This document shows positions 5,145 through 63,892 of a stretch of 64,000 nucleotides of DNA, one piece after another. The translations under genes were made by a program, and so were the position numbers. Numbering within the stretch: position 1 is the first letter of the stretch; every line of letters starts with the position of its first letter. This DNA comes from Planctomycetota bacterium (GTDB lineage: Bacteria; Planctomycetota; Planctomycetia; Pirellulales; Pirellulaceae), in NCBI GenBank assembly GCA_037144155.1, contig JBAWXH010000008.1, positions 28,261-92,260 on the forward strand. Direction: 5' to 3'. The notes under the pieces are model-generated. The model saw only the letters and a program-made list of their open reading frames with translations, searched no databases and was not told the origin of the DNA.

Positions 5145-5166
5145 TGAGCCTGAGGCGCTAGCCGAT
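5145..5166 (-). repeat. REP-like unit (family A, TCGGCTAGCGCCTCAGGCTCA)
   Basis: tgagcctgaggcgctagccga is the exact reverse complement of the units at 35772 and 45498. Confidence 0.85.
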
Positions 5167-6053: not shown

Positions 6054-6126
6054 AACGGCGGGCACTGTGCCGATCGATCGGGCCTCTTCAAAGAATGGGA
6101 TAAATCTGTGTATGTCGGCTAGCGCC

Positions 6127-6303
6127 TTTTGAAGTTGCGCCATTTGAGCCTGGCGAAGCCCCAATCCATGCTTTCCCGAGCTTTTTCGTACTCGTACTCA
6201 GCGTTAGCGGTACTCGTACTCGATGGGGGATCGTCGAGTACGAGTACCATTTCATTGAGTACGAGTACGAGTACGAGAGAGCTCAAACAGCGCAACTTCA
6301 AAA
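6127..6303. mobile_element. MITE-like element, copy 1 (177 bp, 14-bp perfect TIR, GAGTAC hairpin core)
   Basis: TTTTGAAGTTGCGC (6127-6140) and GCGCAACTTCAAAA (6290-6303), flanked by direct repeat CTAGCGCC (6119-6126, 6304-6311). Homologous to 17804-17980 and 63564-63747. Confidence 0.7.
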
Positions 6304-6337
6304 CTAGCGCCTCAGGCTCAAGAAGAACAGGTTCGAG

Positions 6338-16855: not shown

Positions 16856-17800
16856 ATGAGATCACGAATGCACCGCTCCTATTTACCGTTTCCTGAACGA
16901 TTCTTCTCAGGCTCGGTCATACTCACTTCGATGCAGCAGTGGGCCTTCTGTGCGATATTCTTTCTCTCCACATTCTTGGGGACAGAGTTGAACAAAGCAC
17001 GCTCTCAAGAGATATCAAGCGACGTTTCGCCTCGCACCCATTTGCAATTCCCCGGAGAGCGACTCGATGAATGGCATGGATTCAAACGCCATCGATTTGA
17101 TTTTCAAGGCAACGAAGCATGGGTCGTGGAACCGCGCAAGACTCTGGAGGGGGGATGGTTTACCTGGTGTCTGATGTTCCCCGATGCGTTCACGGATCGG
17201 TGCGCTGTTCCAGCCTTACTCGAGAGAGGATTTTACCACGTCTATTTATCTGTCGGCAATTCTTTTGGTTCACCGGCCTCCGTCCAACAGTTGGCCGATT
17301 TTCATGATTTCCTGATGGAGCGCGGGTTCGCTCAAAAGGCGGTGTTGATAGGCATTAGTCGCGGAGGTTTGTACGCGCATCGCTATGCAGCGGAGCATCC
17401 TACGCGCGTCCGTGTCATCTATGGGGATGCTCCCGTACTGGACATGAAGAGTTGGCCTGGCGGACGGGGAAAAGGGAAAGGTAGTCCTTCGGATTGGGAA
17501 GCCATGAAGAATGCGTACGGTTTCACCAATGAAGACCAAGCGATTAACTACAACGGCAATCCGATCGATACGCTCGAGCCATTGGCTCAACATTCGATTG
17601 CGATTATCTACGTGTCCGGAGATGCGGACGATGTGGTCCCCATCGAGGAGAACGCACTCTTGGCGACGGAACGCTATCGCAAACTAGCGGGTACGGTAGA
17701 GCTGATTCGCAAGCCTGGTGTCGGTCATCATCCGCATGGGCTTGAGGATCCGATGCCCGTCGTCGAGTTTATTCTGCAGCACATATCCGCCTCTGAATGA
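16856..17800 (+). CDS. Alpha/beta hydrolase (secreted esterase/peptidase-like)
   Basis: GISRGG nucleophile elbow, GDADDVV Asp, GHHPHGL His. The true start may be downstream. Confidence 0.8.
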   Translation: MRSRMHRSYLPFPERFFSGSVILTSMQQWAFCAIFFLSTFLGTELNKARSQEISSDVSPRTHLQFPGERLDEWHGFKRHRFDFQGNEAWVVEPRKTLEGGWFTWCLMFPDAFTDRCAVPALLERGFYHVYLSVGNSFGSPASVQQLADFHDFLMERGFAQKAVLIGISRGGLYAHRYAAEHPTRVRVIYGDAPVLDMKSWPGGRGKGKGSPSDWEAMKNAYGFTNEDQAINYNGNPIDTLEPLAQHSIAIIYVSGDADDVVPIEENALLATERYRKLAGTVELIRKPGVGHHPHGLEDPMPVVEFILQHISASE

Positions 17801-17803
17801 GGT

Positions 17804-17980
17804 TTTTGATATGGCGCTCTTTTGGCTTCCCTCGTACTCAATGAAATGGTACTCGTACTCGTACTCGTACTCGATGCGGTTTCTTCGAGTACGAGTACCG
17901 CTATCGCTGAGTACGAGTACGAAAAGCAAGGGAAAACAGGGAATGGGGCTTCGAGACAATCGAAGATCGCAGCTTCAAAA
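17804..17980. mobile_element. MITE-like element, copy 2 (177 bp, decayed TIRs, inverted central loop)
   Basis: ttttgatatggcgc ... tcgcagcttcaaaa ends. Same AATGAAATG / GAGTAC core and AAAAGC..GGGAAAAC..GGAATGGGGCT segment as 63564-63747. Confidence 0.65.
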
Positions 17981-18054: not shown

Positions 18055-18762
18055 TTATCTTCGAGGGCCGGGAGGATAGGTTTGCTGACCAGGCACGTTG
18101 TACCCTTGCAATGGATATTGGGGCTGACCATTCCCTGACCCGTTTTGCGGGTAGTATCCATTAGGTTGCGCCTGATTCCACGCATTGGGTTGCTGGGGAT
18201 AGGGATTGGGCGGTGGCTGTTGGTACGCTTGGTAACCCGTTGCGGGAGGATAATTGGGGGGGACAGGGTTGTAGCTGGGCCCTTGGTAGCCCGTGTACAT
18301 CCCTTGAGGCTGTGCGGGTGCAGGATTACCAGCGTAAGGTGGGGCGCCAGCGTACGGTTGGGCGCCGGCGTACGGTGGAGCGCCAGCCGGAGAATATCCA
18401 TTCGACGTAGACGGGTAACCAGGTGCAGTCGATGGAAAGCCGTTCGAAGGCAAACCCGGCAATTGGGTACCGTTGGCTGCGGCTTGGGCTTGAACCTGCC
18501 GCCAATCAATTCCTTGGGATTGAAGATCATCGACGATCCGCTCGCGGGCTTCGTCGACTTTTTCGCGATGGAACTCCAATTGAGGCGTGCCGTTATTCCA
18601 ATCGACCGTCAGTGCTCCAGTTGCTAGCAGCCCGCTAATTGCAATAAACAGAACCTTGGACCCGAGGGGTGAGGAGGCAAGCTGGCGGATGGGAGCAGGC
18701 GCAAATATCAAAGCCGATTCGATGACTTGTTGCTGAGTGGTCTTCTTCACCGCCTTGGCCAT
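18055..18762 (-). CDS. Hypothetical membrane-anchored protein with P/Q/G/Y/N-rich low-complexity tail
   Basis: MAKAVKK start, hydrophobic VLFIAISGLLATGAL segment, GAPPYA repeats. Composition is consistent with a real protein. Confidence 0.7.
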   Translation of the reverse strand: MAKAVKKTTQQQVIESALIFAPAPIRQLASSPLGSKVLFIAISGLLATGALTVDWNNGTPQLEFHREKVDEARERIVDDLQSQGIDWRQVQAQAAANGTQLPGLPSNGFPSTAPGYPSTSNGYSPAGAPPYAGAQPYAGAPPYAGNPAPAQPQGMYTGYQGPSYNPVPPNYPPATGYQAYQQPPPNPYPQQPNAWNQAQPNGYYPQNGSGNGQPQYPLQGYNVPGQQTYPPGPRR

Positions 18763-24558: not shown

Positions 24559-24832
24559 CCATTTTCAACCCTTTTTTGCCTGCACGCGAATCGTTCGAAA
24601 TGAGAGCATTTGCCGAATCGACTCCTTCCCTTCTCCGCGAGACTCCCCTGGTTGCGATCTCCCGTTAACCCTGGTTCTGATAGCCTCCTAGTGCCGATTC
24701 GACTAGACTATCGTCTCAAAAGATCTTGTACTTTGTTGTTGCCTGGTGCAGCCAGTCAGTCATGTCGAGTAAACCACACGAACCCGCGCCGAATCCCTCG
24801 TCATTCGAGAGATTCATCTGAACAGTGCAACC

Positions 24833-45286: not shown

Positions 45287-45380
45287 CTCGTACTCCTATT
45301 CGATGACATGGTACTCGTACTCGTACTCGAATGATACCGCATCGAGTACGAGTACCGCGAAAGCTGAGTACGAGTACGAG
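45287..45380. repeat. Isolated GAGTAC hairpin core (copy 3, no TIRs)
   Basis: gtactc x3 - GAATGATACCGCATC - gagtac x2 - cGCGAAAGCt - gagtac x2. Confidence 0.8.
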
Positions 45381-45497: not shown

Positions 45498-45518
45498 TCG
45501 GCTAGCGCCTCAGGCTCA
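45498..45518 (+). repeat. REP-like family A unit (intact, empty site)
   Basis: tcggctagcgcctcaggctca, identical to 35772-35792. Confidence 0.85.
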
Positions 45519-45546
45519 TGGTTATCCATTGTTGGTTGGCATGACG

Positions 45547-63563: not shown

Positions 63564-63747
63564 TTTTGAAGTCGCGCTATTTTGGCTTCTATCGTACTCG
63601 TACTCAATGAAATGGTACTCGTACTCGTACTCGAAGATACCGCATCGAGTACGAGTACCGCTAACGCTGAGTACGAGTACGAGTACGAAAAAGCTAGGGA
63701 AAACATGGAATGGGGCTAAGAGTGGCTCGAATTGCGCAACTTCAAAA
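63564..63747. mobile_element. MITE-like element, copy 4 (184 bp, opposite orientation to copy 1)
   Basis: TTTTGAAGTCGCGC ... GCGCAACTTCAAAA with CTAG immediately outside both ends; right flank continues as a family A REP variant. Confidence 0.7.
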
Positions 63748-63892
63748 CTAGCGTCTCAGACTCATGGAAACGAAAATCGACTTCTGTCGGCTTTGTCAAA
63801 AAAGAATCTGCTCCGATTCATAGCGATTTCCGACAGAGGCAAACTGGATCGCCTGACTCGTCGCCAACTCCATGCTCAATCCAACTTTTTGT

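Follow-up and report, generated by a model that had tools for sequence, protein, structure and literature searches.

A hairpin-forming MITE family of Pirellulaceae whose tip loop occurs in two mirror-image, inherited orientations

Introduction

The stretch of DNA analysed here, 64,000 nucleotides from a Pirellulaceae genome (the window), holds at positions 17,804 to 17,980 a repeat built of nested, inverted GTACTC runs around a short loop, and this loop resembles the reverse complement of the loop in another copy of the same repeat. Has the tip of this hairpin inverted, and if so, is it reset continually, in the manner of the flip/flop hairpin termini to which the first-pass annotation of the window had likened it, or does it invert rarely and then stay as it is? 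We found that the 177-bp repeat, copy B below, is one full copy of an apparently undescribed, non-autonomous family of MITEs (miniature transposable elements with inverted repeats) dispersed in Pirellulaceae. The loop has inverted, and appears to have done so repeatedly within the family; its orientation is heritable and stable at orthologous loci, and the longer core of the element has inverted in a nested fashion as well. We infer that template switching during replication was the most likely molecular route.

Loop inversion between copies in the window

The window carries four copies of the MITE, A to D (Table 1). Read 5′ to 3′, the element consists of an outer arm, (GTACTC)n, a 5′ bulge AATGAAATG, a further (GTACTC)n, a 14-nt loop, (GAGTAC)n, a 3′ bulge CGCTAnCGCT, a further (GAGTAC)n, a 3′ segment of greater length and the closing outer arm. 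The whole MITE is predicted to form a single long hairpin of these nested inverted runs, with energies of −94.8 kcal/mol (z = −9.7) for copy D folded as RNA and −40 kcal/mol (z = −5.2) for copy B folded as DNA. In this prediction AAUGAAAUG is the unpaired 5′ bulge, and the bulge sequence AATGAAATG is conserved across Pirellulaceae genera; the 3′ bulge folds into a mini-hairpin, and from one subfamily to the next its stem varies with pairing kept (CGCTATCGCT, TGCCCTTCGGGCG, CGGCTTACGCCT and others).

The first-pass annotation had read three loops, those of copies B, C and D, and we recovered the same three sequences, each between a GTACTC and a GAGTAC run. It had also placed all of them in flanks of one orientation, with AATGAAATG upstream and GC-N4-GC, that is CGCTAnCGCT, downstream; this is so for copies B and D, whereas in copy C both flanks are degenerate. 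The loop begins with GA and finishes with TC, ends that are palindromic, and it is the inner 10 bases that are informative. As had been noted, the reverse complement of the copy B loop matches the copy D loop at 13 of 14 bases, compared with 6 of 14 in direct comparison; over the inner 10 bases the match is 9 of 10, for which the chance probability is about 3e-5. A copy outside the window, at locus L223, has a loop that is the exact reverse complement of that of copy B while its bulges have the same polarity. The B/D match and the L223 loop together bear out the earlier claim that the segment between the GTACTC and GAGTAC arms has inverted.

The loop is bounded by a perfect inverted repeat, (GTACTC)n plus GA on one side and TC plus (GAGTAC)n on the other, which encloses a 10-nt inner spacer; of the 35 copies scored, 33 have this repeat at a length of 14 bp and 2 at 20 bp. 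The number of hexamers per arm varies, as had been seen before: it ranges from 1 to 4 within the window and from 1 to 6 across the family, and it differs between strains at one locus. Once orientation is normalised, pairwise identity is 0.77 for the loop, 0.74-0.78 for the terminal repeats and 0.61-0.66 for the internal spacers.

Loop orientation across the family

Scoring loop orientation across copies was among the checks that the first-pass annotation had proposed. We selected copies blind to the loop, by scanning metagenome contigs for the subfamily 3′ bulge with its flanking hexamers, and obtained 55 loci, mostly from one lake population of a different species. Among the 56 copies that could be parsed, 26 are flip (GATGCGGTATCTTC-like, as in copy B), 24 are flop (GAAGATACCGCATC-like, as in copy D) and 6 are of other kinds. 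In 528 pairwise comparisons of the 14-nt loops of the subfamily, scored as matching at 8 or more of 10 bases, 135 pairs agree in direct comparison, 143 agree once one loop is reverse-complemented, and no pair does both. The loops thus fall into two distinct forms, mirror images of each other, and are not noise, and the possibility that they are so variable that a reverse-complement match would be expected by chance does not hold. Normally it is the loop alone that has flipped: in 48 of about 53 copies the polarity of the two bulges and of the asymmetric flanks is unchanged. A scan of a genome collection for the window's loop type gave no matches, so the source species is absent from that collection.

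Orientation is correlated with the sequence outside the loop (permutation p = 0.0005). The correlation is weak, with the nearest neighbour sharing orientation in 30 of 47 cases, and it appears in the 3′ segment as a tendency of flop copies to carry GGGAAAACATGG and of flip copies to carry GGGATnnTACGG. Parsimony on a tree of the copies gives up to 11 orientation changes, compared with 16 ± 1.8 for shuffled labels. Each variant of the 3′ bulge occurs with both loop orientations, and copy B itself is discordant: it has the flop-type flank GGGAAAACAGGGAATGGGGC and the bulge CGCTATCGCT, which mostly goes with flop, yet its loop is flip. In sister subfamilies a single orientation is close to fixation (8:0 in one, 9:0 with a single inverted exception in another), and a further subfamily differs between genomes. 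Mirror-image pairs also occur in unrelated subfamilies, namely L012/L095 against L022, L020 against the other JBKCUI copies, and JAXMBQ against JBGSNE/CAKQNH. The lineage correlation and the near-fixed subfamilies indicate that orientation is not randomised each time an element is copied, and that the ratio of the two forms is not everywhere at equilibrium. Judged from these comparisons among copies, orientation appears to be inherited and yet to have changed more than once.

Stability at orthologous loci

Orthologous loci were reached by homology search with the proteins of flanking genes; L171 and L172, which come from the window's own genome, were left out as non-independent. At the copy B locus, both the sequence and the orientation of the loop are identical in a sister strain with 99.3% nucleotide identity (L168, L169) and in a sister species with about 90-92% identity (L165, L166). 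The same is true of the copy D locus at the strain level, where the flanking protein is 99% identical (L228, L229, L230). Since the loop is shared with the sister species, the inversion in copy B predates a divergence of about 9%.

The hexamer arms have changed over the same interval. The inner 5′ arm at the copy B locus has 4 hexamers in the window, 3 in the sister strain and 2 in the sister species, and there is also one change of GAGTAC to GAGCAC (L168/L169 10967-11041 and L165/L166, compared with 17849-17872 of the window). Hexamer counts at the copy D orthologues are those of the window, and in two further orthologous pairs (L187/L190 and L194/L205) orientation is kept while the counts differ, so that hexamer slippage is seen in 3 of 4 orthologous comparisons. 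With the counts varying and the loop constant, slippage appears to be faster than loop inversion. The hexamer arms thus behave as a fast microsatellite and are a possible strain marker.

Inversion of the whole core

Core orientation was scored by local alignment, with copies oriented by their asymmetric flanks instead of by the bulges. In L173a, L179 and L208a the entire core, from one bulge through the inner stem and its loop to the other bulge, is inverted between the outer hexamer arms, and the same is found in L226a and L204 and probably in the decayed copy C of the window. Core-inverted copies make up about 10% of the subfamily, and all four isomers of loop and core are represented, which is what one would predict if inversion is open to every segment flanked by GTACTC and GAGTAC arms. 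Of the two spacers, the shorter one, the loop, has inverted more often than the longer one, the core.

The core also shows changes of other kinds. In L189 (11706-11902), L193 (1407-1631) and L198 (10867-11041), a 22-nt module on its 3′ side, (GAGTAC)2 plus CGCTAnCGCT, is repeated in tandem in 5-7 copies and forms a minisatellite inside the MITE, lengthening these elements to 285-335 bp. Elsewhere the loop is doubled or tripled with a partial or full hexamer in between (for example GAAGATTCCGCATC-GTACTC-GAAGATACCGCATC; L178 523-625, L203 5883-5995, L207 2337-2457 and L187/L190), an arrangement that suggests slippage taking in the loop. The element at L049 (5217-5306) is symmetric: its 5′ side has AATGAAATG, and its 3′ side has the reverse complement CATTTCATT where the mini-hairpin bulge would normally be, as though the sequence of one arm had been transferred to its partner.

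A MITE family of Pirellulaceae

Alignment of about 50 copies gives a MITE length of about 165-200 bp; copies located by their ends measure 164-210 bp, and those with tandem modules up to 335 bp. The ends are 14-bp terminal inverted repeats, TTTTGAAGTTGCGC on the left and GCGCAACTTCAAAA on the right, which we located in 48 copies and which pair with each other in the predicted fold. An exact direct repeat of 6-10 bp, with a mode of 9 bp, abuts the ends in 20 of the 48 copies, compared with 1.2 expected from shuffled flank pairings, and we therefore take it as a target-site duplication of about 9 bp. The placement is intergenic in 74 of 79 scored copies. Of the 79, 38 lie between tandem, 27 between convergent and 14 between divergent genes; in tandem contexts 25 copies run with the genes and 13 against them, a mild bias only. 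Sites orthologous to that of the copy B neighbour are empty in L099-L103 (62-71% amino acid identity), from genomes that do carry the family; being distant, these empty sites inform on mobility and not on inversion. Terminal repeats, target-site duplication, small size, intergenic position and empty orthologous sites together place the element among the MITEs.

More than 98 contigs carry the exact core GTACTCAATGAAATGGTACTCGTACTC; they come from genomes of Pirellula, Neorhodopirellula, Aureliella and further members of the Pirellulaceae. The cultured Neorhodopirellula pilleata Pla100 is one of the carriers (L045, L059, L065). Within 1.75 Mb of fetched loci we found no open reading frame (ORF) of transposase size between paired terminal repeats, as a parent insertion sequence would have; three long-range pairs of terminal repeats that were considered for this role turned out to be separate MITEs or chance. 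Rfam gave no matches in the window at gathering score and, for copy D at a permissive threshold, only miRNA-hairpin matches of 19.5 and 18.3 bits (cut-offs 80 and 91). In the searchable literature we found no description of the MITE, and neither the TTTTGAAGTTGCGC termini nor the GTACTC arms occur in any described family that could be searched there.

The population from which the window derives is freshwater, Pirellula-like and present in many lake metagenomes. There the depth of the core (window 17797-17931, runs X1-X4) is hundreds of times that of the unique flanks (about 300-600x), and in four lake metagenomes the contigs over copy B stop within its hexamer arms, at about 17858 and about 17897, leaving the locus unbridged. 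Among RNA runs, none was found to contain the locus. The contig ends and the core depth indicate that the MITE systematically breaks short-read assemblies of freshwater Pirellulaceae.

Mechanism and alternative explanations

The explanation that we favour, at a probability of roughly two in three, is that the loop inverts sporadically and reversibly between its hexamer arms, most likely through replication template switching, and that each form is then inherited and spread by copying of the MITE. The 14-nt tip loop, held within a perfect inverted repeat of at least 14 bp, would occasionally be replaced by its own reverse complement when the replicating strand switches to the opposite strand in one hexamer arm and switches back in the other, an intermolecular template switch; recombination between the arms would be a less likely route. 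At the outer arms the same process would occasionally invert the whole core, including both bulges. Each inversion would be a rare, reversible mutation that is stably inherited at its locus and passed to new copies when the MITE is copied, and through this inheritance and propagation both loop forms would come to coexist in a genome, at about 1:1 in the subfamily. Copy B would belong to a flop-type lineage, and its loop would have inverted before the split between the source species and the sister species of roughly 90% identity.

Recombination or template switching between the inverted repeats was already the proposal of the first-pass annotation, and it stands as the best mechanism. Inversion appears to recur in the family, and the segment between the outer arms, with both bulges, has also been found inverted, which a generic inversion mediated by the arms would predict. 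We consider template switching the most likely form of it because the replacement is an exact reverse complement between perfect arms, with length preserved, because it appears recurrent and reversible, and because the short spacer inverts more often than the long one. There is a precedent in which intermolecular template switching inverts the spacer between perfect arms of an inverted repeat, a reversible process that is favoured by longer arms and short spacers (PMC8604942), and loop-only inversions have been documented in bacterial rRNA hairpins (PMC8794818). The bulge replacement in the symmetric element at L049 would be the arm-homogenisation signature that accompanies template switching.

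Several points weigh against this explanation. Only two window loci and two chance orthologous pairs were followed, so that a moderate rate of inversion in place would have escaped, and the loci are represented by consensus contigs, with which switching at low frequency within a population is compatible. The tree that yields up to 11 orientation changes rests on about 110 noisy columns, and gene conversion among copies could mimic repeated inversion. The results do not distinguish template switching from RecA-type recombination or cruciform processing. Finally, the two forms are equally frequent (1:1) and the loop matches the terminal repeats in conservation, which could mean that selection maintains both forms. 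An idea of this kind, which we regard as a long shot, is that both orientations are functional, the tip being a sequence-specific recognition site on single-stranded DNA or RNA that inversion moves to the other strand. If this were true, inversion would toggle the strand or transcript direction competent for mobilisation, termination or protein binding, and selection would be what keeps the forms near 1:1 and the loop as conserved as the termini.

A single ancient inversion could instead have founded a flip and a flop lineage, both of which were amplified, with discordant copies arising by gene conversion or recombination between copies. The significant association of orientation with GGGAAAACATGG and GGGATnnTACGG in the flanks, the subfamilies fixed for one orientation and the lack of an inversion at any orthologous locus examined all fit such a history, but the association is weak by both the nearest-neighbour and the parsimony measures, both orientations occur with each 3′ bulge variant, independent mirror-image pairs occur in unrelated subfamilies, and the core inversions show that the arms mediate inversion repeatedly; we hold a single event to be unlikely. 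Chance resemblance between variable loops, or an assembler that misorients a palindrome, is effectively refuted. Short-read contigs do break inside the repeat, and loops do differ between subfamilies, but the B/D pair is improbable by chance and 143 reverse-complement pairs stand against no ambiguous ones. The 14-bp repeat that bounds the loop in nearly all scored copies is shorter than any assembler k-mer and much shorter than a read, and orientation at one locus is reproduced in independent ENA and JGI assemblies, so that an assembly artefact can be excluded.

The loop might also be an active flip/flop element that isomerises continually, at each locus or in each round of copying, through a hairpin or cruciform intermediate or a recombinase, its mixtures hidden by consensus assemblies. 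A near-equal ratio in the subfamily, a loop sequence conserved in both orientations and an extremely stable predicted hairpin would all be expected of such an element. We nevertheless judge ongoing isomerisation, which the first-pass annotation had implied, to be very improbable: a single orientation is found at the copy B locus (L165, L166, L168, L169) and at the copy D locus (L228-L230), over divergences that run from 0.7% to about 9%, sublineages pass their orientation on, with sister subfamilies at 8:0 and 9:0 and so far from equilibrium, and the bulges stay while the loop inverts in about 90% of copies. The element is moreover internal and flanked by a target-site duplication, and the gene tables of the fetched loci list no recombinase gene nearby.

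Relation to known systems

The hairpins of parvoviruses and adeno-associated virus (AAV) lie at the ends of linear replicons, and their flip and flop forms arise at each replication by hairpin transfer (terminal resolution), at about 1:1 at each terminus and with the whole interior inverting together. The MITE resembles them in that two forms, both present in the element population, differ by the inversion of an asymmetric hairpin interior with bulged arms. It differs in being internal to the chromosome, in having its orientation fixed per locus and in that the tip loop is usually inverted alone; of the three traits that mark the viral hairpins, a terminal position and both forms at one locus (as seen in consensus contigs) were not found, and inversion of the whole interior is confined to a minority of copies. 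The element also has a target-site duplication, and the analogy drawn in the first-pass annotation is not supported. Invertase switches such as fimS and hin likewise present a segment between inverted repeats in two orientations, and those segments are hundreds of bp long. The segment here is 10-14 bp, which to our knowledge is far shorter than known invertase substrates; it occurs at hundreds of loci, no examined locus shows two orientations, and the lack of a recombinase gene nearby makes an invertase switch implausible.

Closer parallels are found among small inversions at hairpins, which were reportedly described in plastomes by Kelchner and Wendel in 1996. Such inversions in plastomes are also the subject of a further account (PMC6824564). 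The yeast "spacer flip inversion" (PMC8604942) and the loop inversions of rRNA and miRNA (PMC8794818) share with the MITE perfect arms, a short spacer, an exact reverse complement and a preserved length. Like template-switch inversions in general, those described here are recurrent, reversible and more frequent with long arms and short spacers. They differ from such cases in that the inversion sits on a multicopy mobile element, that both forms are amplified to about 1:1 per genome, that two nested levels are involved, and that the inverted spacer is 10-14 nt here and 2-8 nt in most reported cases.

As a mobile element, the family resembles bacterial MITEs such as Correia/NEMIS and ERIC in being small, non-coding, intergenic and present in many copies, with terminal repeats, a target-site duplication and a long hairpin. 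It shares with a Porphyromonas gingivalis MITE an internal variable-number tandem repeat, there a minisatellite (PMC4596501). A further likeness to known bacterial MITEs is the preferential insertion into another repeat. What sets the family apart is a core of nested inverted microsatellites that gives four orientation isomers, and that the fetched loci hold no parent insertion sequence. REP and REPIN elements, which RAYT transposases mobilise, are likewise abundant intergenic palindromes that form hairpins (PMC3733652, PMC3337134); REP units, however, are palindromes of 20-40 bp with a GTAG/CGTC head and no target-site duplication (PMC3733652). The MITE is flanked by a duplication of about 9 bp, and the single-strand mechanism of HUH enzymes leaves no such duplication. 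Membership in the REP/REPIN-RAYT group was ruled out by this duplication, the size of 165-200 bp and the lack of a GTAG/CGTC head.

The class of mutation and the class of element are thus known; new are a family with a nested hexamer microsatellite, a balanced dimorphism of the loop within genomes, and the four isomers. The family, apparently undescribed and widespread in Pirellulaceae, abundant freshwater bacteria, offers a clean multicopy bacterial example of inverted-repeat-mediated inversion, in which hundreds of near-identical hairpins per genome log inversions of loop and core. Relative rates can be read from genomes alone, with hexamer slippage ahead of loop inversion, which is rare, and core inversion, which is rarer. 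There is also a practical caution, as alignment and repeat annotation must allow for reverse-complemented loops if an inversion is not to be mistaken for a group of clustered substitutions. The family reveals no new biological mechanism unless its two forms turn out to differ in function.

Other features of the window

Table 1. Positions of the MITE copies, their parts and neighbouring features in the window
Feature	Position	Strand	Remarks
MITE copy A	6127..6303	−	flop-type (D-like) loop GACGATCCCCCATC at 6223-6236; not listed in the first-pass annotation
Copy A target-site duplication GGCGCTAG	6304-6311 and 6119-6126		copy A inserted in the second short repeat
MITE copy B, full length	17804..17980	+	terminal repeats located
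Copy B left terminal inverted repeat TTTTGATATGGCGC	17804..17817	+	degenerate form of consensus TTTTGAAGTTGCGC
Copy B outer 5′ arm, 1 GTACTC unit	17834..17839	+	
Copy B 5′ bulge AATGAAATG	17840..17848	+	
Copy B inner 5′ arm (GTACTC)4	17849..17872	+	
Copy B terminal loop GATGCGGTTTCTTC, flip	17873..17886	+	exact reverse complement of the L223 flop loop GAAGAAACCGCATC
Copy B inner 3′ arm (GAGTAC)2	17887..17898	+	
Copy B 3′ bulge CGCTATCGCT, mini-hairpin	17899..17908	+	
Copy B outer 3′ arm (GAGTAC)2	17909..17920	+	
Copy B asymmetric 3′ internal segment GAAAAGCAAGGGAAAACAGGGAATGGGGCTTCGAGACAATCGAAGA	17921..17966	+	type that otherwise goes with flop copies
Copy B right terminal inverted repeat TCGCAGCTTCAAAA	17967..17980	+	
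Copy B neighbour, alpha/beta-hydrolase	ending 17800		convergent with the 235-aa ORF; gene calls from identical contig L171
Copy B neighbour, 235-aa ORF	18055-18762	−	gene calls from identical contig L171
MITE copy C, decayed core	45290..45377	+	no recognisable terminal repeats; loop GAATGATACCGCATC at 45329-45343
MITE copy D, full length	63564..63747	+	flop loop GAAGATACCGCATC at 63633-63646
Second short repeat TCGGCTAGCGCCTCAGGCTC	5146-5166	−	
Second short repeat TCGGCTAGCGCCTCAGGCTC	6302-6322	+	
Second short repeat TCGGCTAGCGCCTCAGGCTC	45500-45520	+	
Second short repeat TCGGCTAGCGCCTCAGGCTC	63743-63767		
TCGGCTAGCGCCTCAGGCTC inverted doublet, REPIN-like	35732-35795		copies facing each other across about 24 nt

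The core of copy C is probably inverted relative to its residual flanks, with an ambiguous alignment score. The window also holds a second, unrelated short repeat, TCGGCTAGCGCCTCAGGCTC, with 41 matches in the fetched loci. This repeat is a frequent insertion site of the MITE, the duplication then being (A)GGCGCTAG, as in copy A, L182, L219, L220 and L223, and copies in other genomes are found within another palindrome, CCCTCGCTTACGCTTCGGG (L012, L047, L060, L070, L079); these placements suggest a target preference of the MITE for other hairpin repeats.

At 24800/24801, about 2.6 kb is absent from the window compared with the sister strain and sister species contigs L165, L168 and L169. In those contigs a gene for a 1090-aa Ser/Thr protein kinase/RDD protein spans the site, and the window genome (L171) has a 189-aa ORF followed by different genes, which looks like a deletion or replacement that truncated the kinase.

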